DNA of 64,000 nt from Anaeromyxobacteraceae bacterium (GCA_047602405.1 JASGHJ010000002.1:2336001-2400000); one strand, 5' to 3'. Shown: positions 816 through 51,997, numbered from the stretch's first letter. Program-made: numbers and translations. The notes: generated from the letters alone by a model not told the origin.

Positions 816-2090
816 TCAGGCCGCCACTGCATGAGGTGATGATCCGTACGCGGCGACCACCTCGCCAGCGACCGGATCGGGAGGCGTATCGTCGTTGGAC
901 GGCGCCTCTCCGCCGCCGTCCTCCGACGCGCGCTCCCGCCGCGCCGCCCGCTCCGCCCGCGCCTCCGCGATCTTCTGCTCGATGAACTCCGGCCCGAACT
1001 TCAGGAACGCGGCGTAGAGGTTATGGGGGAAGCAGTAGGTCAGGAGCTCGTCGACGGTGGACGATCCCGTCACGAGCGCCCCGTCCTTGTGCTCCATGGT
1101 CAGGTTCTCGGTGCTCTCGCACCGATGCCCCTCCTCCTCGCCGAACCGGCACCGGTACCCATCCCGCTCGAGCACCGCCCGCCTCACCTCCGCCAGGACG
1201 GGCTGCCGGATCCCGGGCGTCGGCTCCTTCGCCGGCGCCGGCTTCCGTACACGCGTCGGCTTCAGCAGCCCCCGCTTGCGCTTCTGGGCCTCGAGCGAGT
1301 CGCGAACCATGATCGCGAGGAGCTTCGCCGGCGCGCGGTCCGGCACGACGTTCGCGAGCAGCCCCGCGAGCTCGTCGAACAGCCGGTTCGTTTCCTCGTC
1401 CATGTGCGCCCGGAGCTGGTACTCGTCCTTCGCGACCGGGACGACCTCGCCGCGGTCGGCGCGGCGTGGAGGCGTGACCGGAGCTGCGACGGAGGGCACG
1501 GAGAGCACCAGCGCCGGTGCGACTTCGTTCGCGGCTCCAACCATGTCCGGAAGTAGAGAATTCACCTGAACGGGTGCAGCGGGGTCCGTGACCGCAGCCG
1601 TGGCCGCATCGGTAGCCGTGGCCGAAACCGTAGCCGTGTTGGTGGCCGATGCCGCGCCCGAGGCCCTCGGCAGCCGACGCACCCCGTCCGCAGGCACGTC
1701 CCGCGGCCGGATGGCGACGACGAGTTCGACCGTCTTCCGCTTCGACAGCCACGCCGCCTTGGCGACGAGCTCGTCGTAGTTCTCGGGGGTAAGCACCGAC
1801 GCGAGCACGAGGAGCTGGGTCGGATTCAGACGCCCGGTCTCGAGCTCCGCCTCGAGCCCCGGAAACCGTCGAATGAGCCGCATCGCCGTCACTCGCCCCG
1901 CCGCCGTCCCCTCGCAGAGGTGCCACACCTTCGTGAGGTACTCCCAGGCCGAGCCGCAGTTGAACTCGCAGTAGCCCCGCTCCCGGTCGAGCACGTGAAG
2001 CTTCCGCAGGAACTCGACGAGCCGGTGCCGGTCGCCCGCGATCAGCTCTCCGATCTCCTCGTGCAGCTTCATCATCTTCGGGTTCCGCAT
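816..2090 (-). CDS. DUF222-like / HNH endonuclease-family protein
   Basis: N-terminal RRFPGLEAELETGRL region typical of DUF222-HNH proteins; C-terminal VRRAVLERDGYRC...RC...EH...LLTYCFPHN; GAGGTGA RBS before ATG. Confidence 0.75.
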   Translation of the reverse strand: MRNPKMMKLHEEIGELIAGDRHRLVEFLRKLHVLDRERGYCEFNCGSAWEYLTKVWHLCEGTAAGRVTAMRLIRRFPGLEAELETGRLNPTQLLVLASVLTPENYDELVAKAAWLSKRKTVELVVAIRPRDVPADGVRRLPRASGAASATNTATVSATATDAATAAVTDPAAPVQVNSLLPDMVGAANEVAPALVLSVPSVAAPVTPPRRADRGEVVPVAKDEYQLRAHMDEETNRLFDELAGLLANVVPDRAPAKLLAIMVRDSLEAQKRKRGLLKPTRVRKPAPAKEPTPGIRQPVLAEVRRAVLERDGYRCRFGEEEGHRCESTENLTMEHKDGALVTGSSTVDELLTYCFPHNLYAAFLKFGPEFIEQKIAEARAERAARRERASEDGGGEAPSNDDTPPDPVAGEVVAAYGSSPHAVAA

Positions 2091-2356
2091 GGCTCACCTC
2101 GCGTGACCGGGGGGCGTGAACGCCCGTCCAGTATACATAAACACGTGAAGTGAATATGTCCATGGGTCGCGAGCGTCCCTGAAGGGTTCACCCACAGTCA
2201 CCCATCGCCTGTCGCGACGGTCCGCGGCGCAATCCCGGCCGCCCGTCTCCCCTCACGACTGCTTCACCGTAGTGCGGGCAACCCACCTCAACCCGCCCTG
2301 CGCCGGTCGCGGTTCTCCACCTTGCGAGGAGGCCAGCCCGCAAAGGCCGACGCGGG

Positions 2357-2419
2357 CTCGGGCGCCTCGACGAGGCGCGGGCCTTGCTGCTCGAGTTGAA
2401 GCGGCGGACGGGGCGCTGA
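2357..2419 (+). repeat. Direct repeat copy 2: relic 3' end of the TPR gene (LGRLDEARALLLELKRRTGR*)
   Basis: 27 bp identical to 742-768, followed by an in-frame stop at the same distance (63 nt) as in copy 1. Confidence 0.85.
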
Positions 2420-2428
2420 GGCGCGCCG

Positions 2429-3397
2429 CTACTTGAACACCGTCTTCACCCACGCCTCGGCCTGGTCGAGGTCGTTGCCGAGCGCCTGGACGCGCGCGGG
2501 GCCGAGCCCGATGGCCTTCGCGGCGTCGACCACCTCGGCGGGCGCGGTCGGGTGCGTCCCCGGCTCGCGCCGGAGGAGATCGGCCGCCGAGATCATCCGC
2601 ACGAGCTGCACGAAGGGATCCTTCGTCGCCTGGTGGTGCCCGGCGGCGACGTCGGCGAGCGTGGGCGGGAGCTGCCAGATGCGGTGCATCTCGGTGCCGA
2701 GCTCCACGTGCACGAGGTGGAGCGCGCGGCGGACCTCGGCGGCGGGCAAGGTGCGGAGCTTCCCGTACTCGGTGAGCTCGGAGACCGAGCGCATGCCAAC
2801 GCCCTTGCCGACGTCGTGGAGGAGCCCGGCCATGAAGACCTGCTCCGCGCCGGGGTTCGCGGCGAGCTTCTGCTTGGCGAGATCGGCCGCGCAGCGCGCC
2901 ACGGTGGCGGCGTGCATGAAGAGCTCGGTCCAGATCGGCTCGTAGGCCTTCTGGTTGCCGCCCGACTCCGGGCTGTAGAGCGACTTCATCGAGATCGCGG
3001 CGGCGAGCCGGGCGACCTCCGACATGCCGAGGCGCGCGACCGCCTCCTTCACGGTGTCGATGCGGCGCACCGCGCGGTAGACCGCCGAGTTCGCGAGCGC
3101 GAGCACGCCGCCGGCGAGCGCGCCGTCGACGCGGATGTACTTCGAGAGCTCCCCGAGGTCGACGTCCGGGTACCGGACGAGCTCGAGGATCTGCATCGCG
3201 ATCGAAGGGAACGCGGCCGGGCCGGGCCGGGCGACCTCGAAGTGCGCCCGGATGGCCTCGACGGTGCGCTGCTCCTCGGCGGTGACGTCGGGCTCGGGTG
3301 CTGCGAGCGCGGCGACATCGACCGAGAGCGCCTGCGCCCAGGCCTCGGGCGGCGCGTCGGGGCTCGTGGGGAGCGGTGGCGTGGGAGCGGCGCTCAT
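2429..3397 (-). CDS. HDOD domain protein
   Basis: FPSIAMQIL, DGALAGGVLALANS, IDTVKEAVARLG, FMAGLLHDVGK motifs. Confidence 0.9.
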   Translation of the reverse strand: MSAAPTPPLPTSPDAPPEAWAQALSVDVAALAAPEPDVTAEEQRTVEAIRAHFEVARPGPAAFPSIAMQILELVRYPDVDLGELSKYIRVDGALAGGVLALANSAVYRAVRRIDTVKEAVARLGMSEVARLAAAISMKSLYSPESGGNQKAYEPIWTELFMHAATVARCAADLAKQKLAANPGAEQVFMAGLLHDVGKGVGMRSVSELTEYGKLRTLPAAEVRRALHLVHVELGTEMHRIWQLPPTLADVAAGHHQATKDPFVQLVRMISAADLLRREPGTHPTAPAEVVDAAKAIGLGPARVQALGNDLDQAEAWVKTVFK

Positions 3398-3831
3398 GGC
3401 GATTCCTTACCACTCCCCGGGCCCGAAATCGAAGGCGAAGCCGGCCCGACCCGGACCATCCGCTCGAAGAGCCGGTCCAGGGCGCGTAGGGGATCGTCGC
3501 ACAGCCCGGAGTGCACCGGCGAGACCTGCACGATGGTGCTCCGCGGCGCGACGAGCCAGTGCCAGCGCTCCCGGGCGGAGAGCCTGCCGATGGGGCCGGC
3601 CGCCGGGCCGCCCTCGCAGATGCGGGGGATGACCGCGAGGTGCTCCTCCACGACGGCGGGGTCGGTGTCCGGCGAGAGCGCGGCGAGGCGCCCCCGGTCG
3701 AGCGCGACCCGGGCCGAGAGCACGCCCTTCTCCAGGCAGAAGAGGATGACCCCGGCGTTCAGGAACTCCTCGCGCTCGACGCGCGGGACCACCCGGACGA
3801 CGGCGTAGTCAAACGAGGGCGGCGCGGGCAC
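3394..3831 (-). CDS. DUF3037 domain protein
   Basis: FDYAVVRVVPRVEREEFLNAGVIL and RWHWLVAPRSTIVQVSPVHSGLC; ATGA overlap with HDOD gene. Confidence 0.9.
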   Translation of the reverse strand: MPAPPSFDYAVVRVVPRVEREEFLNAGVILFCLEKGVLSARVALDRGRLAALSPDTDPAVVEEHLAVIPRICEGGPAAGPIGRLSARERWHWLVAPRSTIVQVSPVHSGLCDDPLRALDRLFERMVRVGPASPSISGPGSGKESP

Positions 3832-4570
3832 GTTCCGCCTCCTCGAGCCAGAGGTCCGACGCCTCGAGGCGCCGGGCGAGGTGTTCGACGTAGGCCGCGC
3901 GGTCCGGGCCGTCCGCGGAGAGCCAGGCGTCCGGCACGGCGGCGAGCACGGCCGCGATCGCAGGCCGGGTCGCTTTCGCGCGCAGCGCGGCGACGGCGGC
4001 CGGCAACGCCGTCGCCCACGGCAGGAGCACGTGGTCCTTCACGAGCGGGTACGCCGAGCGCGCGGTGTCCTTCCTCGCGTCCCAGGCGTGGTGGAAGTGC
4101 AGCGCGGCGCCGTGGTCGATGAGCCAGAGCTGCCGGTGCCAGAGGAGGAGGTTCGTGTTTCTCGGCGTGCGGTCGACGTTCTGGACCCAGGCGTCGAGCG
4201 CGACCACCGCGGACGCGAGCGCCGGGGCCGGGGCGGGGCCCGCGACCGGGTCGAACGTCACGCTGCCGGGGAGGTAGTCGACGCCGAGGTTCGTCCCGGC
4301 GCTCGCCTTGAGGAGCTGGCGGATCTCGTAGTCGGGCTCGTTGCGGCCGAGGGCCGGGTCGAGCGCGAGGAGGACGAGCTCCGGGACCCGCAGGCCGGCG
4401 AGCCGGGCGAGCTCGCCCGCGATGAGCTCGGCGACGAGGGCCTTCTCGCCCTGCCCCGCGCCGCGGAACTTCGCGACGTACAGCCCGTCGTCGTCCCCCT
4501 CCACGATGGCCGGCAGGGAGCCGCCCTCGCGGAGCGGGGTGACGTAGCGGGTGGCGTGGACCGTGCGCAC
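3809..4570 (-). CDS. HipA-family kinase-like protein
   Basis: YVTPLREGGSLP, YVAKFRGAGQG, NVDRTPRNTNLL, LIDHGAAL; overlaps the DUF3037 gene. Confidence 0.85.
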   Translation of the reverse strand: MRTVHATRYVTPLREGGSLPAIVEGDDDGLYVAKFRGAGQGEKALVAELIAGELARLAGLRVPELVLLALDPALGRNEPDYEIRQLLKASAGTNLGVDYLPGSVTFDPVAGPAPAPALASAVVALDAWVQNVDRTPRNTNLLLWHRQLWLIDHGAALHFHHAWDARKDTARSAYPLVKDHVLLPWATALPAAVAALRAKATRPAIAAVLAAVPDAWLSADGPDRAAYVEHLARRLEASDLWLEEAERARAALV

Positions 4571-4607
4571 CGGGAGAACCTATCACCGGAGGCGCTCCGG
4601 GTCCGTA

Positions 4608-4653
4608 CGTCCCGAGCGTGGCGGTGGTGCAGCCACCGCGGAGACGAGGGACG
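4608..4653 (+). repeat. REP-like palindrome, family A
   Basis: cgtccc-gagcg-[gcggtgg..ccaccgc]-..cga-gggacg; same architecture as the reverse complement of 33717-33756. Confidence 0.7.
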
Positions 4654-4655
4654 CC

Positions 4656-4919
4656 CTACGGCATGTCCGAGAGCCCGCCGCCGTTCACGACGTCGGTCCA
4701 GCCGTTCGCCTTCAGCATGCGGGCCGCGAAGGCGCTGCGGGCGCCGGACGCGCAGTAGAGCACCACCGGCCGGTCCTTCGGGATCTCGCCGGCCCGGCTG
4801 CCGAGGTCCTGCACCGGGATGTTGACCGCGTTCGGGTAGGCCCCGTCCGCGAACTCCTCGGGGGTGCGGACGTCCACGATGACCGCCCCCGCGTTGATCT
4901 TGTCCTTTATCGCGCTCAT
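4656..4919 (-). CDS. Single-domain rhodanese / sulfurtransferase
   Basis: IVDVRTPEEFADG, NAVNIP, LYCASGARS. Confidence 0.9.
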   Translation of the reverse strand: MSAIKDKINAGAVIVDVRTPEEFADGAYPNAVNIPVQDLGSRAGEIPKDRPVVLYCASGARSAFAARMLKANGWTDVVNGGGLSDMP

Positions 4920-4928
4920 GTCCCTCTC

Positions 4929-6617
4929 CTAATCGCCCGTCTGGATGGTGTGCACGCCCTCGGCGAGCACGCTCGTCATGCCGCCGGTCACGTTGACCAC
5001 GTCGGCGAAGCCCTTGCCCTTCAGGATCCGGAGCGCGAGGTGCGCCCGGAACCCGCTCTTGCAGACCACCGCGATCTTCCGGTCGCGCGGCAGCGACTCG
5101 AGCTCGAAGCGGAGCTCGTCCACCGGCACGTTCCGCGCGCCCGCGACGTGGCCCCGCTCGTACTCGGTGCCGTTCCGCACGTCGAGGACGAGCGGCGGGT
5201 TCGCCCCGTCGAGGGCGGCCCGGAGCTGCCCCGCCGTCATGAGCGGCGCATGCCCCTTCACGTCGTTGAGCCCCACCATCGCGACGAGGTTCACGGGATC
5301 GTTCGCCGACGAGTACGGCGGCGCATAGGCGAGGTCGAGCTCCTCGAGGTCGTGGAGCGTCATCCCGCCCTGGAGCGCGGTCGCGAGCACGTCGATGCGC
5401 TTGTCCGCGCCGGCGTGGCCGAAGGCCTGGCCGCCGAGGAGCTTCGCGGTCTTCCGGTCGTAGACGACCTTGAGGAGGAGCTCCTGCGCGCCCGGGTAGT
5501 AGCCGGCGTGGTGGTCCTTGTGGATGACCGCCACGCCCACGTCGAGGCCGGCCTCGCGGGCCGCGCGCTCGGAGAGGCCGGTCATGCCCGCGGTGGCCTC
5601 GAACACCTTCACGACCGAGGTGCCGAGCGCGCCGTGGTAGCGCAGGTCCCCGCCGAGCGCGTTCGTGGCCGCGATGCGGCCCTGGCGGTTCGCGGGGCCG
5701 GCGAGCGGGATGCGCGCGCGCTTCCCGGAGATCTTGTGGAGGACCTCGACCATGTCGCCGGCCGCGAGCACGTCGGGGTCGCTCGTCTCGAGCCGGTCGT
5801 TCACGAGGAGCGCGCCGGTGGGGCCGATCTCGAGGCCGGCCGCCCGCGCGAGCGCGAGCTCGGGCCGCACGCCGACCGAGAGGAGCACCACCTCGGCCGG
5901 GAGCCGCCGCCCGTCGGCGAGCTCGAGGGTCTTCTCCTCGGGGTGGACGGCCTTCACGCCCACGCCGGTCACCACCTTCACGCCGTTCGCCTCGAGCTCG
6001 CCCTGCACGCGGTGGCCGAGCTCGGCGTCCATGACGGCCATCACCGTCGGGAGGAGCTCCACGACCGTGACCTCGAGGCCGCGGCGCCTGAGCGCCTCGG
6101 CCATCTCGAGCCCGATGAACCCGCCTCCGACGACGACCGCGGTGCGGGGCTTCTCCGTGTCGAGGAAGCCGTGGATCCGGTCGGTGTCCGGCACGGTCCA
6201 GAGCTGGAAGACGTGCGGCGCATCCACGCCGGGCAAGGGCGGCTTCACCGGGTTGCCGCCCTGGGCGAGGATGAGCTTGTCGTACTGCAACCACTCCTCA
6301 CGCTGTGTTGCCGCTGCGCCGGCTGGCGGCCCCTTCACGCGGACCCGCTTCCCGGCCCGGTCGAGCTCGAGCGCCTCGGTCTTCACCTTGACCTTGACCC
6401 CGTACCGCGCGTCGAAGCCCTCCGGCGTCTGGAGCAGGAGCTGGGACCGCTTCTGGATGTCCCGGGCGATGAAGTACGGCAGGCCGCAGTTCGCGTAGGA
6501 GACGTACGGCCCCCGCTCGAGGACGGTGATCTCCGCCTCCTCGTCGAGCCGCCGCGCGCGCGCCGCGGCGGTGGCCCCGCCCGCGACACCGCCGATGATC
6601 AGGATCCGCCTGGCCAT
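4929..6617 (-). CDS. CoA-disulfide/persulfide reductase with C-terminal rhodanese domain
   Basis: GGVAGG FAD motif, SYANCGLPY redox Cys, GGGFIGLE, LAYAPPYS, C-terminal LDVR...VCKSGFRA; AAGGAG RBS supports ATG 6617. Confidence 0.9.
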   Translation of the reverse strand: MARRILIIGGVAGGATAAARARRLDEEAEITVLERGPYVSYANCGLPYFIARDIQKRSQLLLQTPEGFDARYGVKVKVKTEALELDRAGKRVRVKGPPAGAAATQREEWLQYDKLILAQGGNPVKPPLPGVDAPHVFQLWTVPDTDRIHGFLDTEKPRTAVVVGGGFIGLEMAEALRRRGLEVTVVELLPTVMAVMDAELGHRVQGELEANGVKVVTGVGVKAVHPEEKTLELADGRRLPAEVVLLSVGVRPELALARAAGLEIGPTGALLVNDRLETSDPDVLAAGDMVEVLHKISGKRARIPLAGPANRQGRIAATNALGGDLRYHGALGTSVVKVFEATAGMTGLSERAAREAGLDVGVAVIHKDHHAGYYPGAQELLLKVVYDRKTAKLLGGQAFGHAGADKRIDVLATALQGGMTLHDLEELDLAYAPPYSSANDPVNLVAMVGLNDVKGHAPLMTAGQLRAALDGANPPLVLDVRNGTEYERGHVAGARNVPVDELRFELESLPRDRKIAVVCKSGFRAHLALRILKGKGFADVVNVTGGMTSVLAEGVHTIQTGD

Positions 6618-7422: not shown

Positions 7423-7926
7423 CTACGGGCAGGCCTTCAGGACGAGCCCCTCGCCGGTCACCCGGCCCGCGGCGCCCTGGAACCCGACGTCCACGGCCGT
7501 CAGCGTGACGGTGCCGTCCGACGCCTGGGTCCACGCGACGCTCCCGTCGGCCGCGTCGTACCCGAGCGTCGCGACGTCGCGCGCGTAGCCGGTCACCGCG
7601 CCGACCGCCTCGCCCGCCGCGGGCGCCGCCTTCGGCGCGGTCACCACCGCCTGGCTCGCGCCGCCCGCCTGCGGCGCGACCCGGAGCGCGAGGAGCGTCC
7701 ACTGCGTCTGCGGCACCGCGCTGATCGCGGCGCAGGTGTCCGGCTGATCCGAGACGTACAGCGCGAGCCCGTAGGCCGTCTGCACGGCCGCGCCGGAGAC
7801 CGCGTGCAGCTCGAGCCCGCCGACCGTGAAGCGAAGGTCCCCGTCCGGCCCTCCCTGCACCGGCGGGTTCGAGCACCCGGCGGCGAGGGCGCCCGCGAGG
7901 GCGAGGGCGGCGGGGGCGCGCTTCAC
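7423..7926 (-). CDS. Hypothetical lipoprotein
   Basis: GTG start 2 nt after the upstream stop; KR-hydrophobic-LAAGC lipobox; beta-rich mature part. Confidence 0.65.
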   Translation of the reverse strand: MKRAPAALALAGALAAGCSNPPVQGGPDGDLRFTVGGLELHAVSGAAVQTAYGLALYVSDQPDTCAAISAVPQTQWTLLALRVAPQAGGASQAVVTAPKAAPAAGEAVGAVTGYARDVATLGYDAADGSVAWTQASDGTVTLTAVDVGFQGAAGRVTGEGLVLKACP

Positions 7927-7928
7927 GC

Positions 7929-9458
7929 TCAGCGCAGCTCCGAGAAGCTGATCCGCACCTTGTGGCGGCCGTCGGGATCGCTCGCGATGACGCCGAGGTC
8001 CTCCACCTGCGCGACCTTGCCCTGGAACGTGTAGGGCGTGGTCCGGGCGGCGAGCGCGTCGACCTGGTCGGCGGGGAACGCGAAGTAGAGCGGGGCCGGG
8101 GTCCCGGCCAGCCAGTGCGAGAAGAGGTACATGACGAGCGCGTGCTCGTGGGAGTGGAACCCGCTCTTCCACTCGTTGCACTTCGAGGTGTCGCCGTCCG
8201 ACCAGTTGAAGTGCCCGCCGCTCCGGTTGATCGAGGCGTAGACCTCCTTCGCGGACTCCCGGCCGATCGTCCGATCGACGAAGTGGTCGACGAACGCCGG
8301 GGCCGTGACGGCGAGCGTGGGCAGCCAGGTCGAGGGGGCGTGCATCGCGAGCGTGGCGGTGAACTGGTCGGCCTCGGCGTAGATCCACCAGTCGGAGCCG
8401 TAGGCGGCGGTGCTGGACGAGGTGGGCCGGTTGCCCCACCAGCCGGTCAAGGGGTCCACCGCGAGCTGGACGTTCGCCGGCGCGTTCGTCGAGACGAACG
8501 CGGCGAACGGGTGATCGTCGAGCCGCTTGTCGATCTGCGTGAGCGCCCAGTAGGCCTTGAGGCCGTGGCCGAAGTCGGCGTGCCGGGAGCCGAAGACGCC
8601 CTTCGTCGCCGTGGTCCCCCACATGAAGCCGTCCTGGAAGAACCGATCCTTCATGGTGGTGCCGAGGGTGCGCAGGTCGCCGAGCAGCTGGGTGCGGCGC
8701 GCCGGGTCGGTGAGCGCCGGCTGCGCGAGCAGCATGAAGGCCGTCACGGGGTCCAGCTGGGCGACGAGCTCCCAGCTGCCGGCGCCGGACATGTACGCCT
8801 CCGCGGTGAGCCCCGCGTTCATGCCGTCCTTGATGCGCTGGTTCGGGGCGTCCCAGTACTTCGCCGGGTCGAAGAGGAGGTCGCGGGTGGCGAGCACCGC
8901 CGCCTCGGCGGCCGGGTCGCGGGTCACGTAGAAGTACGCGGCCGGCCCCATCACCGTGTACGAGAAGTCCTGGGCGAACTTGTCGCCCGTGCCGGACGGC
9001 GCGCCGGTCGCGTCGAGATCGGCATACCAGCCGCCCACCGCCGCGTCCCACGCGTGGTCCTCGAGGAACTTCGCGCCGGCGCGGGCGAGCCCCAGGGCCT
9101 GCTCGTCGCCGGTCATCAGGTACTCGACCGCGTACGCGAACGTCTGCCGCCCCATCATGCGGGGCTTGCGCGCGCCGTTCGAGGTGGTCGCGCCCATCAT
9201 CGTGCGGTAGGTGGGGAAGTTGCCGACGGGCGTGCCCTTCGCCGCGTCCTGCGCCCAGTACGGGGCGAGGTCGCCGGTGAGGTGGGCCGTCCAGCTCGCG
9301 GGGTCGAGGCCCGCGGGCGCCGCCGCCGCGGGCGGCGCGGTGTACGCGTAGGGGTCGGTCGAGTCCGGTCCCGCCTTCTTGTCGGAGCCGCACGCCACGA
9401 GCGCGAGGGCGAGGAGGAGGGCCGCGGGGCGGTGGAGCGTCGTCGTCATGGTCGTCAT
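7929..9458 (-). CDS. AGE-family (N-acylglucosamine/cellobiose 2-epimerase-like) lipoprotein
   Basis: RMMGRQTF, AWDAAVGGWY, FGH, WWIYAE, WKSGFH motifs; LVAC lipobox; start may be 9449. Confidence 0.7.
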   Translation of the reverse strand: MTTMTTTLHRPAALLLALALVACGSDKKAGPDSTDPYAYTAPPAAAAPAGLDPASWTAHLTGDLAPYWAQDAAKGTPVGNFPTYRTMMGATTSNGARKPRMMGRQTFAYAVEYLMTGDEQALGLARAGAKFLEDHAWDAAVGGWYADLDATGAPSGTGDKFAQDFSYTVMGPAAYFYVTRDPAAEAAVLATRDLLFDPAKYWDAPNQRIKDGMNAGLTAEAYMSGAGSWELVAQLDPVTAFMLLAQPALTDPARRTQLLGDLRTLGTTMKDRFFQDGFMWGTTATKGVFGSRHADFGHGLKAYWALTQIDKRLDDHPFAAFVSTNAPANVQLAVDPLTGWWGNRPTSSSTAAYGSDWWIYAEADQFTATLAMHAPSTWLPTLAVTAPAFVDHFVDRTIGRESAKEVYASINRSGGHFNWSDGDTSKCNEWKSGFHSHEHALVMYLFSHWLAGTPAPLYFAFPADQVDALAARTTPYTFQGKVAQVEDLGVIASDPDGRHKVRISFSELR

Positions 9459-40677: not shown

Positions 40678-41106
40678 ATGGAGACGACCGCATCGCGAGA
40701 GACGACGTGGGATCCCGCCCTCGAGACCGGGCACGCCGAGATCGACCGGCAGCACCGCTCCCTGTACGCCTGCGCCGACCGGCTCATCCAGGCCATCCAG
40801 CGCCAGCAGGGCGCCGCCGCCGTGGCCGACGCCATCCGCTTCCTCCGGGGGTACGTGCGCGAGCACTTCGAGGCCGAGGAGGCCCTCATGCGCGAGCACG
40901 CCTACCCCGAGCGCGAGTTCCACGTCGGCCTGCACGAGCGGATCCGCCGCCGGCTCGACGAGGTGGTCGCCGTCTACGAGCGGGACGGCGGCTCGGAGGC
41001 GCTCCTCGGCGACGTCGAGGCGATGATGCGGGGCTGGCTGTCCCTCCACATCGGCGAGAAGGACCGCGCGCTCGCCGACTTCCTGCACCGGCAGGGCGCC
41101 CGTTGA
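40678..41106 (+). CDS. Bacteriohemerythrin
   Basis: IDRQH, HFEAEE, YP..HVGLH, WLSLHIGEKD. Confidence 0.9.
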   Translation: METTASRETTWDPALETGHAEIDRQHRSLYACADRLIQAIQRQQGAAAVADAIRFLRGYVREHFEAEEALMREHAYPEREFHVGLHERIRRRLDEVVAVYERDGGSEALLGDVEAMMRGWLSLHIGEKDRALADFLHRQGAR

Positions 41107-42493: not shown

Positions 42494-42916
42494 ATGGCCC
42501 TGCAGTGGGACAGGTCCCTCGCCGTCGGCGTGAAGCTCATCGACGAGCAGCACCAGGAGCTCTTCCGCCGCGTGAACACGCTCCTCGAGTCCATGCTCAA
42601 GAACCAGGGCAAGGGCGAGATCGAGAAGCTCATCGGCTTCCTCGCGCAGTACGTCGTCGATCACTTCGCCGCCGAGGAGAAGATGATGACGCAGTACCGG
42701 TACCCGGACCTCGCGAAGCACCGGCAGGCCCACGCCGACTTCGTGAAGCGGTTCGGCGAGCTCAAGGCCGCCTTCGACAAGGACGGCGCCACCCCGACCG
42801 TCACCATCGAGCTCAACCGCTTCGTCGGCGGCTGGCTGCGCGAGCACATCGGCCGCACCGACACCGCGCTCGGCAAGTTCCTCCACCAGGTGAACGCGAC
42901 CGAGGCACACGCGTAG
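42494..42916 (+). CDS. Bacteriohemerythrin
   Basis: GGAG RBS; IDEQH, HFAAEE, YP..HRQAH, WLREHIGRTD. Confidence 0.92.
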   Translation: MALQWDRSLAVGVKLIDEQHQELFRRVNTLLESMLKNQGKGEIEKLIGFLAQYVVDHFAAEEKMMTQYRYPDLAKHRQAHADFVKRFGELKAAFDKDGATPTVTIELNRFVGGWLREHIGRTDTALGKFLHQVNATEAHA

Positions 42917-48404: not shown

Positions 48405-48487
48405 CCCGGTCGGGGCGGCCGGCAGGGCCGCTGCACGATCGTCGGCGCTCGCGTTCCCTCCGTCCGGAACGGCAGAATCCGACCACC

Positions 48488-49243
48488 ATGCCTCGCCCCC
48501 CCGCCCTCGCCGTCGCCCTGCTCGCCGTCGCCGGCGCCGCCTGCGACCCGCAGGCGAACGCCTCGAGCTACCGGGGCGAGCCGCTGTTCGAGTTCGACGG
48601 CTCCGTGGTCGCCGCCGCCGCGAGCGCCCTGCCCGACGTGGAGGTGGCGGTGGCCTGGCAGGACGGGAACGTCCCGGCGCTCACCTCGAAGGTCGCCTTC
48701 ACCGAGCGCAACCCGGTCTCCCGGAGCGGCACGACGGGCACCTTCACCGTGCGCATCTACGTGCCGCCGCCCTCCGCCGCGTACCTCGCCCTCGCGCCCG
48801 GCGAGCCCCGGCTCGGGGTGGCCACGCTGGGCGCGTTCCCTCCCGCGGGCGGGACCTCCGGGACGTCCGCCCCGCCCTACCCGGCGGGCGGGTTCTACTC
48901 CGCCTACGACCTGCGCCACTGGGTCGTCCACCTCGCCGCCGACGCGCCCGCGGGGTCGGCCACCGCCTGGTGGCTGGGCGGCCCCGCCGCGGCGGGCTTC
49001 CACCTCGTGGAGCTCACCGACGCGGGCTGCCCGACCGCCGCGGAGGTGGCGGCCTGCGTGACCGCGCTCGCCGCGCTCGGCGTGCCCGCGACCTCGACCG
49101 ACCTGCCCGCCGGCGTGGGCGGGGGCGGCGCCCAGACGCTGTGCAGCACCCGGTACCGCCTCTCCCCGTCCCCCGCCGCCGCCCCCGTGTCCTTCGAGCT
49201 CGGCGGCCCCTCCGGCGCGAGCGACCCCTGGGCCTGCCCGTGA
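48488..49243 (+). CDS. Hypothetical lipoprotein
   Basis: Hydrophobic N-terminus ending GAAC; GTGA overlap with the sigma gene. Confidence 0.65.
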   Translation: MPRPPALAVALLAVAGAACDPQANASSYRGEPLFEFDGSVVAAAASALPDVEVAVAWQDGNVPALTSKVAFTERNPVSRSGTTGTFTVRIYVPPPSAAYLALAPGEPRLGVATLGAFPPAGGTSGTSAPPYPAGGFYSAYDLRHWVVHLAADAPAGSATAWWLGGPAAAGFHLVELTDAGCPTAAEVAACVTALAALGVPATSTDLPAGVGGGGAQTLCSTRYRLSPSPAAAPVSFELGGPSGASDPWACP

Positions 49244-49728
49244 GCCTCGACCGCGAGGGCGTCGAGCGGCTCTACCGCGCCCACGGCGGGGTGGTGCTGC
49301 GCCGCGCGCGGATGCTGCTCGGCAACGAGGCCGACGCGCAGGAGGCGCTGCAGGAGGTCTTCGCGGGGCTCCTGCGCGCGCCCGACGAGATCCGCGACCC
49401 CGCCGCGGTCATCGCCTGGCTCTACCGCGCGACCACCCACCTGTGCCTCAACGTGCTGCGCGGCCGGCGCACGAGCGGGAGGCTCCTCGAGCGGCACCTC
49501 CGGCCGCTGCCGGCGTCGGCGCCCTCGCGCGCCGACGCGCTCGCCGAGGTGCGCAGCGTGCTCGCCGGGCTCCCCGCGGAGCTCGCCGCCGCCTTCGTCC
49601 ACCACCACCTCGACGGCATGACCTACGACGAGATCGGCGAGCAGCTCGGCTGCTCCCGGCGAAAGGTCGGCTACCTCCTGCAGAAGGCCGAGGCGCTGCT
49701 CCGGGAACCCGGGGAGAGGACCGCATGA
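49240..49728 (+). CDS. ECF RNA polymerase sigma factor
   Basis: DAQEALQEVF, AWLYRATTHLCLN, DGMTYDEIGEQLGCSRRKV. Confidence 0.9.
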   Translation: MSLDREGVERLYRAHGGVVLRRARMLLGNEADAQEALQEVFAGLLRAPDEIRDPAAVIAWLYRATTHLCLNVLRGRRTSGRLLERHLRPLPASAPSRADALAEVRSVLAGLPAELAAAFVHHHLDGMTYDEIGEQLGCSRRKVGYLLQKAEALLREPGERTA

Positions 49729-50450
49729 CCACCCCTGCCCTCGCGCGCGCAGGCTGGACCGCCTGCCACTCCGCGCTCCACCTCGACCGCTGGCTCGCCG
49801 GCGCGCTGCCCGCGCCCGAGGCCGCGGCACTCGCCGCCCACGTGGAGGGCTGCGCGCGCTGCGGGGACGCCGTGGCGGAGCTCCGGGCCGCCCGGGCCGA
49901 CCCGCTGCCGCCGCTCCGCGCGCCCGCCGCCGTCGCCGGGCCCGCCCCCGCGCCCCCGCGCCGCCGGGGCGCGCTCGTCCCGGCGGCCGCGGCCGCGCTC
50001 GCCGCCGCCGCGGCGGTGCTCCTCGTGGTCGGCCCGGGCCCCGTGGAGCGCACGAAGGGGGGCGCGGTGGCGCTCGGGATGTGGGTCCAGCACGGCGGCG
50101 AGGTCCGCCGGGCCGGCCCCGGCGAGGCGGTCGCGCCGGGGGACGCGGTCCGCTTCTCCGTGACGACGCCGTGGCCCGCGTACGTCGCCGTGCTCTCGGT
50201 CGACGCCGCGGGCCGCGCCTCGGTCTACTACCCCGACGGCGCCACCGCGGCGCCGGTCGCGCCGGGCACCGACGTCGCGCTCCCGCTCGCGACCCGGCTC
50301 GACGGCACCGCCGGCCCGGAGCGGATCGTCGGGCTCTTCTGCGAGCGCGCGATCGCGCTCGAGCCGGTGCGCGCGGGGCTCGAGCAGGGCGACGCGGGCG
50401 CGGTGCCCGCCGGCTGCCAGGAGACCCGTTGGTCCTTCGTGAAGCGCTAG
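49725..50450 (+). CDS. Zinc-finger anti-sigma factor with TM helix and DUF4384-like extracytoplasmic domain
   Basis: HVEGCARC (HxxxCxxC), TM segment, PGDAVRFSV..YVAVLSVD..G; ATGA overlap. Confidence 0.8.
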   Translation: MTTPALARAGWTACHSALHLDRWLAGALPAPEAAALAAHVEGCARCGDAVAELRAARADPLPPLRAPAAVAGPAPAPPRRRGALVPAAAAALAAAAAVLLVVGPGPVERTKGGAVALGMWVQHGGEVRRAGPGEAVAPGDAVRFSVTTPWPAYVAVLSVDAAGRASVYYPDGATAAPVAPGTDVALPLATRLDGTAGPERIVGLFCERAIALEPVRAGLEQGDAGAVPAGCQETRWSFVKR

Positions 50451-51997
50451 CCGCCGCGCTCGCCGCGGCCGTGCTCGCCCTGCCCGGCGCCGCCGGCGCG
50501 GAGCCGGCGCGGTACGCCGTCGTGGCGGGCAACGACGCCGGACTCCCCCCCGACGCGCCGCTGCGCTGGGCGGAGGCGGACGCCGAGCGGGTCGCGGCCG
50601 CGCTCGCGGAGGTCGGCGGCGTGCCCGCCGAGAACGTGGTGCTGCTGCGCGGCCAGGACGCCGGGGCGCTCCGCCGCGCGCTCATCGCGGTGAACGAGCG
50701 GGTGCGCCTCGCCGGCCGCGAGGCGGTGCTCTTCGTCTACTACTCCGGCCACGCCGACGCCGACGCGCTGCACCTCGGCGCGTCCGCGCTGCAGCTCGCG
50801 GAGCTCGAGCAGCTCGTGCGCGGCTCCGCCGCGACCTTCCGGCTGCTCGTGCTCGACGCCTGCCGCTCCGGCGCGCTGACCCGGGTGAAGGGGGGCCGTC
50901 CCATCCCGCCCTTCGAGCTCAAGGCGAGCGAGCGCGCCCCGGGCGAGGGCGCGGTGTTCCTCACCTCGAGCTCGGCGTCGGAGGACAGCCAGGAGTCGGA
51001 CGAGCTGCGCGGGAGCTTCTTCACGCACGCGCTCCTCTCCGGCCTCCTCGGCGCCGCCGACGAGGACGGCGACGGCCGGGTGACGCTCGAGGAGGTCTAC
51101 CGCCACGCCTACGCGGCGACGCTCCGCAACACGAGCCGCACCTGGGCCGGCACGCAGCACCCGACCTTCCAGTACGACGTGCGCGGCCAGGGCGACGTCG
51201 TGCTCGCCACCCTGCCCTCGACGGGCGGCGGCCGGGGCTGGCTCGCGCTCCCGGAGGGGCAGGACTGGCTCGTGTTCCGCGACTCGGCCGACGGGCCGGT
51301 GGTGGGCGAGGTGGCCCGGGCCGACCGCGCGCGGCGCCTCTCGGTGAAGCCGGGCACCTACTTCGTGCGCGGCCGCGGCGCCGACGTGCTCCTCGAGGGC
51401 GAGCTCGCGGCCACGGCGGGCGGCACCGCGGCGCCGGATCCCGCGCGCCTCCGGCGCACCGCGTACGCGCGCCTGGTGAGGAAGGGGCTCTCCGACCTGG
51501 GCCTCTCGGGCTCGGTCGAGCTCGAGGGGCGGACGCGCGTCGCGCTCTCCTCGGAGGGGCGCACCTGCACGGGCGCGGCGGCGGGCGTGGCGGTCGCGCT
51601 CCGCCCGCTCACGCTGCAGGCCCGGTTCGGCTGGTGCCGGAGCGGCTTCGAGCAGGGCCCGCTCCGCGCGACCACCGAGGGCTTCGACCTCGAGGTCGGC
51701 GCGACGCGGGTCTGGGACGTCGGCGCCGGCACCGTGGAGCTCGGCGTGCTCGCCGGGAGCGCGGTGCTCCAGCAGCGCTTCCGGACGCCGGGGGTCGCGC
51801 CGTCCCGCACGAGCGCGGCGCTCCAGCTCGCCCCGGTGCTCTCCGCCTCGCGAGACCTCGGCGCGCGGACCTACGTCTACGCCTCGCTCTCCGGGGCGAC
51901 GTACCTCTTCCGCCTCGAGGACGGCGAGCGGCAGTCGGTCCGCTTCGCGCCCTCGTTCGCGCCGCGCGGCGCGCTCGGGCTCGGCGTGAGGTGGTGA
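50429..51997 (+). CDS. Exported caspase-family (C14) protease with beta-rich C-terminus; start uncertain
   Basis: Signal-like N-terminus, YYSGHAD and LDACRSG dyad, ESDELRGSFFTH, DEDGDGRVT, C-terminal LGVRW. Confidence 0.85.
   Translation: MVLREALAAALAAAVLALPGAAGAEPARYAVVAGNDAGLPPDAPLRWAEADAERVAAALAEVGGVPAENVVLLRGQDAGALRRALIAVNERVRLAGREAVLFVYYSGHADADALHLGASALQLAELEQLVRGSAATFRLLVLDACRSGALTRVKGGRPIPPFELKASERAPGEGAVFLTSSSASEDSQESDELRGSFFTHALLSGLLGAADEDGDGRVTLEEVYRHAYAATLRNTSRTWAGTQHPTFQYDVRGQGDVVLATLPSTGGGRGWLALPEGQDWLVFRDSADGPVVGEVARADRARRLSVKPGTYFVRGRGADVLLEGELAATAGGTAAPDPARLRRTAYARLVRKGLSDLGLSGSVELEGRTRVALSSEGRTCTGAAAGVAVALRPLTLQARFGWCRSGFEQGPLRATTEGFDLEVGATRVWDVGAGTVELGVLAGSAVLQQRFRTPGVAPSRTSAALQLAPVLSASRDLGARTYVYASLSGATYLFRLEDGERQSVRFAPSFAPRGALGLGVRW

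Follow-up and report, generated by a model that had tools for sequence, protein, structure and literature searches.

A caspase-family protease with an outer-membrane barrel, encoded beside an ECF sigma factor and its putative anti-sigma factor in Anaeromyxobacteraceae: a candidate site-1 protease

Regulated proteolysis of an anti-sigma factor is a known kind of logic, and the operon described here joins it to an unusual proposed site-1 enzyme. The operon occupies positions 48488 to 51997 of a 64,000-nucleotide stretch of DNA from an Anaeromyxobacteraceae bacterium (GCA_047602405.1, JASGHJ010000002.1:2336001-2400000), the whole of which is hereafter called the window. It encodes a lipoprotein, a sigma factor of the extracytoplasmic function (ECF) type, a predicted membrane anti-sigma factor and an exported protease of the caspase family (C14) fused to an outer-membrane barrel. 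Our preferred reading, which we regard as probable rather than secure, is that the protease would cut after the lysine of an (R)-x-K-G motif common to both proteins, first processing itself and next the anti-sigma factor, and so free the sigma factor. The literature searched, which did not extend to the primary papers on the act operon, gave no account of this operon.

DegS, of the DegS-RseA-RseP pathway, is an inner-membrane serine protease. The operon resembles that pathway, as outlined in passages of PMC11506125, in having an ECF sigma factor, a single-pass anti-sigma factor and a predicted periplasmic cut near the membrane that would be followed by an RseP-type cut, and differs from it in its proposed site-1 enzyme, a cysteine protease of clan CD that the operon itself encodes, anchored in the outer membrane and provided with a predicted self-release site. 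The same passages describe the DdvA-DdvS pair of Myxococcus xanthus, which likewise combines an ECF sigma factor with a zinc-finger transmembrane anti-sigma factor and in which a periplasmic caspase-like domain is proposed to cut the linker; removal of the clipped zinc-finger anti-sigma factor by RseP was shown there and the first cut was proposed. In DdvA, however, the TPR-CHAT region is fused to the anti-sigma factor and its active site is incomplete, whereas the operon encodes a separate C14 protein with a complete acidic pocket, a barrel and motifs that match those of its partner. Assignment of the window protein to the DdvA type was considered and rejected: it is 241 amino acids long, its outer part consists of DUF4384 only, and it carries no TPR-CHAT fusion. 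Should our reading hold, the caspase-like site-1 step proposed for DdvA would have a simpler, two-protein form here.

Caspase-like proteases also act on sigma-factor systems in defence. In the Craspase system (Csx29-Csx30-RpoE), such a protease cuts an anti-sigma-like partner, and some Csx30 C-terminal domains belong to DUF4384, a family often fused to proteases (passages of bioRxiv 2022.08.17.504292); in the SAVED-CHAT/PCaspase/PCc-sigma/PCi system, one acts on a sigma factor (passages of bioRxiv 2023.06.23.546230). Both are described there as CRISPR-triggered, in contrast to the present operon, which has export signals and a barrel, consists of four genes only and includes no SAVED, CHAT or kinase gene, as judged from flanks read by eye and without a defence-library scan. 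Finally, MALT1 and the Arg/Lys-specific metacaspases and orthocaspases share with the window protease the caspase fold, an S1 pocket with three acidic residues and a beta-sandwich that follows the protease domain (passages of PMC4357240 and PMC8283722). The window protease differs in being exported and barrel-anchored, in the strong preference for Lys at its conserved sites and in the EF-hand loop inside its domain.

Lysine-glycine sites in the anti-sigma factor and the protease

The four genes of the operon lie on one strand:

48488..49243, + strand: lipoprotein, 251 aa, lipobox Cys19 at 48542-48544
49240..49728, + strand: ECF sigma factor, 162 aa, with Sigma70_r2 and Sigma70_r4_2 over cut-off
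49725..50450, + strand: predicted anti-sigma factor, 241 aa, with zinc finger, one membrane helix, linker and DUF4384 beta-sandwich
50429..51997, + strand: exported C14 protease and outer-membrane barrel fusion, 522 aa, with a match to PF00656

As the first-pass annotation had read them, the genes overlap, by 4, 4 and 22 nucleotides, and their third-position GC is 0.98-0.99. The protease starts at a TTG codon (50429), and the same column in 119 close homologues has M in 80 and V in 23. A protein with 95% identity is named by one source as belonging to Anaeromyxobacter. Together, the four proteins contain 9 lysines and exactly three KG pairs, referred to as sites A, B and C:

50049..50060, + strand: site A, R109-T-K111-G112 of the anti-sigma factor, proposed site-1 cut after K111 (conserved, coil in the model)
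50882..50893, + strand: site B, R152-V-K154-G155 of the protease, nine residues beyond the catalytic Cys, opening a disordered L4-type loop
51470..51487, + strand: site C, R-L-V-R-K352-G353 of the protease, proposed release site where the soluble part joins the barrel

The first-pass annotation had noticed RVKGG (50882-50896) and RTKGG (50049-50063), both of which are present, and had proposed RxKGG as a motif shared by the two proteins, with co-conservation of RxKG in both families as a check; the third site (K352-G353, 51482-51487) was absent from it. In a first set of 178 pairs (11 of 189 were left out, no full membrane helix having been found), RxKGG occurs at site A in 45, at site B in 121 and at site C in 5, and RxKG in 146, 156 and 5, respectively, while KG is found in 175 of the 178 anti-sigma factors. 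The K-G core is thus common to both proteins and its co-conservation is strong, that of R-x-K-G is fair, and the last glycine does not hold, so that RxKGG was given up as the shared motif in favour of (R)-x-K-G.

The wider comparison rests on 365 loci gathered by protease similarity, in which the anti-sigma profile had its motif columns removed. They comprise 312 with a complete adjacent pair, 11 with a truncated anti-sigma factor, 27 with none despite room, 10 that are too short and 5 with a cut protease; removal of near-duplicates left 264 pairs. A sigma gene precedes the anti-sigma/protease pair in 195 of the 202 loci with room. Site A is kept far above chance: by a count that uses no alignment, KG is found in the linker between the membrane helix and the outer domain of 253 of the 264 anti-sigma factors, whereas 200 shuffles gave 48 on average and 63 at most. 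Its glycine is the sole invariant column in 119 divergent outer domains (21% mean column identity), its lysine being kept in at least 90%. The site lies in a coil with a model confidence (pLDDT) of about 53, ahead of a well-folded Ig-like domain, at a median of 14 residues from the membrane helix across the family and about 9 in the window protein. In the protease, K154 of site B is kept in 259 and G155 in all of the 264, and the following loop has a pLDDT of 53-56; at site C, where the pLDDT dips to 70, 257 of the 264 aligned proteases have K or R and 245 have the G, and [KR]G is found in this region of 257 of 258 proteases (shuffle mean 125, maximum 142). In the AlphaFold models, all three sites fall where order is lowest. 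Each of the genome's six paralogous operons keeps the three.

These counts bear on an alternative in which the motifs reflect structure or coincidence and the anti-sigma factor is not acted on by the protease, which would perhaps be displayed at the surface or released outside like an autotransporter. K-G is just two letters long, and bacterial C14 proteins commonly have a basic-Gly pair past the catalytic Cys. Site A, however, although it lies in a coil and not in the folded domain, is conserved more than any other spot of its family and far above shuffles. Autotransporter barrels, moreover, have 12 strands, in contrast to the eight of the barrel in our model, and a classical autotransporter was rejected on this ground. 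We hold this alternative to be very improbable.

The likely specificity of the enzyme can be read from its active site, which lies in the following domain:

50501..51211, + strand: caspase-fold domain with the dyad H108 (50750-52) and C145 (50861-63), the acidic S1 residues D51, D143 and E189, and D191 (50999-51001), a candidate for binding P3

All 264 relatives have H108 and C145. Nearly invariant are three acidic S1 residues of the kind that Arg/Lys-specific C14B proteases carry on alpha1, L4 and L5, with D143 and E189 in all 264 and D51 in 260 (E in the other 4). In MALT1, the ligands of the P1 arginine are Asp365, Asp462 and Glu500 (passages of PMC4357240); D51, D143 and E189 map to these residues by sequence position and fold, not atom by atom, and a basic P1 residue is therefore expected. 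P1 of site A in 263 anti-sigma factors (one of the 264 pairs, without the motif, was left out) is Lys in 253, Met in 7 and Arg in 3.

An alternative use of the same linker is as a docking segment or pseudo-substrate inhibitor, bound in the active site so that binding, not cutting, relays the signal or restrains the protease; securin sits in the active site of separase in such a manner. The seven anti-sigma factors with Met for Lys keep the P3 Arg and the Gly, and Met matches the shape of Lys and not the acidic pocket. The Gly of site A is also stricter than its Lys, and the Haliangium PCaspase/sigma cluster has a protease-inhibitor gene, PCi (passages of bioRxiv 2023.06.23.546230). On the other side, cutting by an active acidic pocket is to be expected at the 253 Lys and 3 Arg residues, all 264 proteases have an intact dyad, and the protease carries the same core at two places of its own, both of them joints at which a cut makes sense. 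This explanation appears quite unlikely to us, and we return to cutting after the lysine.

Variants of the sites were also seen. Site A reads R-x-M-G or R-W-R-G in L189, L200, L246, L253, L256, L259 and L264, and in L276 and L280. In one divergent clade of five loci (L253, L259, L264, L276 and L280), site B becomes RG or LG, site C RG, and site A RG or MG, together; S106 is replaced by Ala in the same clade, which counts as one event and possibly reflects a changed P1 preference.

Architecture of the anti-sigma factor and the protease

The sigma factor scores 73.1 bits against TIGR02937 (cut-off 42.9) and is short, with regions 2 and 4 only, as is the case for ECF sigma factors. The product of the third gene matches zf-HC2 at 24.9 bits (cut-off 22.2) and DUF4384, also over cut-off. 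It has the features of a transmembrane zinc-binding anti-sigma (ZAS) protein, namely an HxxxCxxC finger, one membrane helix and a gene at position +1 of the sigma gene, and is likely, from these sequence features, to be the membrane anti-sigma factor of the adjoining sigma factor. Its parts are:

49764..49862, + strand: zinc-binding anti-sigma region (C14, H39, C43, C46), from conservation in 119 close homologues
49974..50030, + strand: membrane helix, about residues 84-102, preceded by RRR (positive-inside), from sequence and a hydropathy scan
50070..50444, + strand: DUF4384 Ig-like domain with a conserved Cys pair, C206 and C231, from Pfam, homologues and model

In the close homologues, H39, C43 and C46 are present in 119 of 119 and C14 in 118. 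The outer part is modelled with a pLDDT of 93 and resembles generic Ig-like folds only among known structures (best Z 8.6); PDB sequence searches returned no solved relative of the protease domain or of the anti-sigma factor beyond weak local matches. The profile of the outer domain matches 7,367 clusters at E 1e-10. KG was found in 136 of the 150 best family representatives, a count that we did not use, since 13 of the 14 others are probably the wrong stretch and one is a four-domain protein without KG. The N-terminal anti-sigma-like region of P0244 (758 aa) is doubled, and the protein further has a single membrane helix and four DUF4384-like domains in tandem; KG is absent past the helix. 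Among described ECF groups, ECF25 is alike in the description of its DUF4384 anti-sigma factor, the only basis of the comparison, and the portion of the PMC7826278 supplement concerned names no caspase.

The remaining features of the protease are as follows:

50429..50500, + strand: signal peptide, 24 aa, ending A-G-A, from sequence
51059..51094, + strand: loop of 12 residues of the EF-hand type within the protease domain, D211 to E222
51236..51463, + strand: small beta-sandwich spacer domain, strands at mature residues 246-321 in the model
51506..51994, + strand: eight-stranded outer-membrane barrel of the OmpA/NspA/OmpW type ending in Trp, from model and Foldseek

The protease matches PF00656 (Peptidase_C14) at 38.7 bits (cut-off 21.4); membership of the EACC1-associated caspase family (NF047832) was rejected at 78.7 bits against a curated cut-off of 140. 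In the AlphaFold model of the mature protein (pLDDT 91.7), the caspase domain is followed by the small beta-sandwich, then by a short helix that ends at site C, and lastly by the eight-stranded barrel. The closest structures to the protease domain are metacaspase 4 (Z 22.0, root-mean-square deviation (rmsd) 2.8, 209 aligned), caspase-9 (Z 21.1) and MALT1 (Z 20.2). The barrel finds OmpA in the top Foldseek rows and aligns with NspA at Z 18.0 (rmsd 2.8, 151 aligned), OmpA at 16.9 and OmpW at 16.4. A hydrophobic stretch precedes the first strand in 246 of 259 protease relatives. The EF-hand-type loop forms a helix-loop-helix in the model and has a weak match to a calcium-binding protein (E 0.006); among 264 proteases, position 1 is D in 261, position 3 D, N or S in 239, position 5 D in 244 and position 12 E in 262, a conservation that suggests a controlled enzyme. 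The intact His-Cys dyad, the signal-like N-terminus, the EF-hand-like DEDGDGRVT, now a full 12-residue loop between two helices with the EF-hand ligand positions 1, 3, 5, 9 and 12, and the barrel-like C-terminus ending in Trp had all been noticed in the first-pass annotation and are confirmed here.

Both termini of OmpA-type barrels are in the periplasm. The protease domain should therefore hang inward from the outer membrane, and by this modelled topology it would face the periplasm.

Proposed pathway and the weight of the evidence

We propose that a signal arriving at the barrel, at the lipoprotein or at the EF-hand loop would set off the protease. It would cut its own site B, in the loop past the catalytic Cys, as happens when caspases are activated, and its own site C, and would thereby be released from the barrel. 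The freed protease would reach the inner membrane and cut site A, about nine residues outside the helix, so that the DUF4384 domain would be lost; a cut within the membrane by an RseP-type protease would follow, and the freed sigma factor would transcribe its own operon from a candidate promoter. Geometry gives site C its place in this scheme: a tethered protease could hardly reach site A at the inner membrane, and the cut at site C would supply the missing step. The genome has M50 site-2 proteases (four matches to PF02163); the same family was found in 14 of 14 control genomes, so its presence says little. The first-pass annotation had already proposed an outer-membrane caspase acting as a dedicated site-1 protease, a view with which the barrel, the export signal, the S1 pocket and the position of site A fit; its motif proved too long and it had missed the third site.

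Support of a different kind comes from covariation between enzyme and putative substrate. All protease columns were scanned against the P3 residue of the anti-sigma factor, and the scan singled out D191, two residues past E189 on the substrate-binding loop. In 263 pairs, an acidic residue 191 accompanies a P3 Arg in 216 and a non-acidic residue a non-Arg in 22; the mixed classes are acidic with non-Arg (20) and non-acidic with Arg (5). By a tree-aware count, on a tree built without these columns, column 191 ranks 1 of 93 and the protease's own P3 (R152) second. In 94 pairs fetched after the link was noticed, it persists, the four classes, in the same order, comprising 68, 8, 4 and 14 pairs (Fisher p 0.0008, kin not corrected). 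As evidence that site A enters the active site, the covariation is suggestive and not proven. P3 covariation between sites A and B alone was not significant with kinship allowed for, and a complex prediction for mature residues 1-335 of the protease and the outer part of the anti-sigma factor (score 0.00, mark 0.32) counts neither way.

Several observations weigh against this pathway. The tree-aware sign test on residue 191 was not significant, about 4 independent pairs being concordant and 0.1-0.5 opposite (median p 0.125-0.25), and most independent pairs, defined by supported branches, do not differ. The link is also weaker in the later 94 pairs, where 14 of the 22 non-Asp proteases still pair with an Arg site. 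A simple rule of cutting after Lys does not explain Met at P1, four of the seven instances of which stand beside proteases with K-G self-sites. Residues P3-P2 of site C differ from those of the other sites, which are therefore not three copies of one exact motif, and the 27 proteases without an adjacent anti-sigma gene mostly keep sites B and C, so that self-cutting would be independent of this partner. MALT1 is active without an L4 cut (passages of PMC4357240), so a cut at site B is not necessarily one that activates. The sequence in which the cuts would occur, finally, is a guess from geometry.

It is also conceivable that the cuts are housekeeping maturation, after which the pieces stay together until a signal pulls them apart, or that the signal works by contact between the DUF4384 and barrel proteins. 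Such cuts would give the same conservation and covariation, and no inhibitor or pro-domain restraining the protease was identified. Cell-surface signalling of the FecR type is contact-based, and an outer-membrane barrel with a periplasmic N-terminal domain beside a membrane anti-sigma factor resembles it. The orthocaspase MaOC1, for its part, self-processes without calcium (passages of PMC8283722). However, the stub that would be left near the membrane is of the kind that RseP removes in Myxococcus (passages of PMC11506125), and constant cutting would switch the system on; the conserved EF-hand loop speaks for control as well. We judge constitutive maturation unlikely, and prefer cutting in response to a signal.

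Should the preferred pathway be true, it would provide a new kind of site-1 protease, with a signal that crosses the periplasm by means of a released enzyme and not by contact between membrane proteins, a role other than cell death for one of the commonest caspase families of myxobacteria, and a function for DUF4384. It also predicts exact cut sites and a specificity residue.

Lipoprotein, promoter, paralogous operons and act-like loci

The lipoprotein matched no Pfam or NCBIfam family, and its look-alikes in the Atlas are unnamed Myxococcota clusters. Its own cluster has 54 members, 24 upstream (the window included) and 30 downstream of related operons. Where there is room, 83 of 183 loci have a lipobox gene downstream and 37 of 138 have one upstream, and these genes fall into 31 sequence clusters; the lipoprotein thus travels along with the module and is not a fixed part of it. 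L001 and L004 have RCC1-repeat lipoprotein genes next downstream.

A candidate promoter precedes the first gene:

48432..48457, + strand: candidate ECF-type promoter TGC..-N15-CG.TCC, 30 nt before the first gene

A similar pattern stands before 10 of 12 related lipoprotein genes, chosen by eye and post hoc, with a chance expectation of 1.5% per 150 nt. To judge from the pattern, the promoter is likely the sigma factor's own target. It would fit autoregulation, in which case the lipoprotein would be an output; the first gene product is likely such an output and may also feed back on the protease. A single family-wide promoter pattern was rejected, that of the window being neither enriched before sigma genes (176 loci) nor present in the five paralogous operons. 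A second promoter-like pattern, GTGACA-gap-CGGTGTT, occurs upstream of sigma genes in about 18 of the 176 loci and suggests clade-specific self-promoters. A sequencing-run search listed no RNA sequencing runs carrying the locus, only DNA runs, in small share.

The genome holds six sigma/anti-sigma/protease operons, five of them with a lipoprotein gene alongside, as read from the called genes. Those outside the window are:

G000:C2 ~1013-5224 (L001), 1976384-1979357 (L002), 3025078-3027950 (L003) and 2558500-2562730 (L004): paralogous operons, three K/R-G sites each
G000:C1 988710-992177 (L005): paralogous operon, three K/R-G sites

The protease of L005 has a longer, repeat-bearing C-terminus, and its anti-sigma factor lacks the zinc-finger cysteines. 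A profile built from six protease rows matches 102 of 151 sampled genomes of the phylum, and a second protease profile has 17 matches in one genome; the taxonomic range was checked in this phylum and in a few named records outside the sample. Proteases with a signal peptide and without an adjacent anti-sigma gene occur in the 27 loci mentioned above, for example L123, L203, L244, L252 and L277.

The distribution is relevant to an alternative in which the protease is mainly an output of the sigma factor that, induced by some other trigger, would mature or degrade other envelope or secreted proteins, and cutting of the anti-sigma factor is only positive feedback. Its place behind a candidate self-promoter, the orphan proteases of the 27 loci and an act-like locus with the pair and no adjacent sigma gene all agree with this, and the specificity of PCaspase is broad (passages of bioRxiv 2023.06.23.546230). 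However, the window lipoprotein has no KG pair and its family no conserved basic-Gly site, and the fact that every one of the genome's six paralogous operons encodes a protease of its own is more in keeping with private signalling lines than with a shared effector. A mainly effector role is in our estimation decidedly improbable, and the protease is taken below, as before, to act on its neighbour.

The act-like locus, L366:4705-11869 (G118, same order), encodes in succession a GGDEF protein, a sigma-54 activator, an epimerase-acetyltransferase, a member of the present anti-sigma family and a member of the present protease family; L367 is also of this kind. Its copy of the pair keeps all three K/R-G sites, and differs from the window operon in that no ECF sigma gene adjoins it and in a barrel region of the longer type. 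The Myxococcus act operon has five genes (passages of PMC3824092), with actA (GGDEF) upstream of actB (passages of PMC4877007). The gene order of L366 matches that operon as described in these passages, and its anti-sigma and protease genes stand in fourth and fifth place. Listed as raised in a csgA mutant of M. xanthus are two caspase-family entries, MXAN_4951 and MXAN_7216, and a DUF4384 entry, MXAN_4885 (PMC11980068). A wider claim, which we offer tentatively, is that of a widespread trans-envelope class, present in several copies per genome, in which the receptor, a caspase suspended beneath an eight-stranded outer-membrane barrel, would release itself, traverse the periplasm and clip its own anti-sigma factor at a K-G site, a code of residue 191 and P3 would help to separate paralogues, and the pair would have been recruited into the act operon. 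If true, this would give a mechanism to the poorly understood distal act genes of an operon tied to C-signal timing in Myxococcus development.

Other genes near these operons were noted. A gene for an M50-family membrane protease lies two genes upstream of the L005 operon (G000:C1:994646-995263; L005:10476-11402), which may be chance. In the window, two short genes on the + strand at 40678-41106 and 42494-42916, presumably hemerythrin-like, flank a third, and L001 holds two similar small genes placed tail to tail at 7722-8072 (+ strand) and 8125-8490 (- strand), whose products we take, from their appearance, to be four-helix-bundle proteins.

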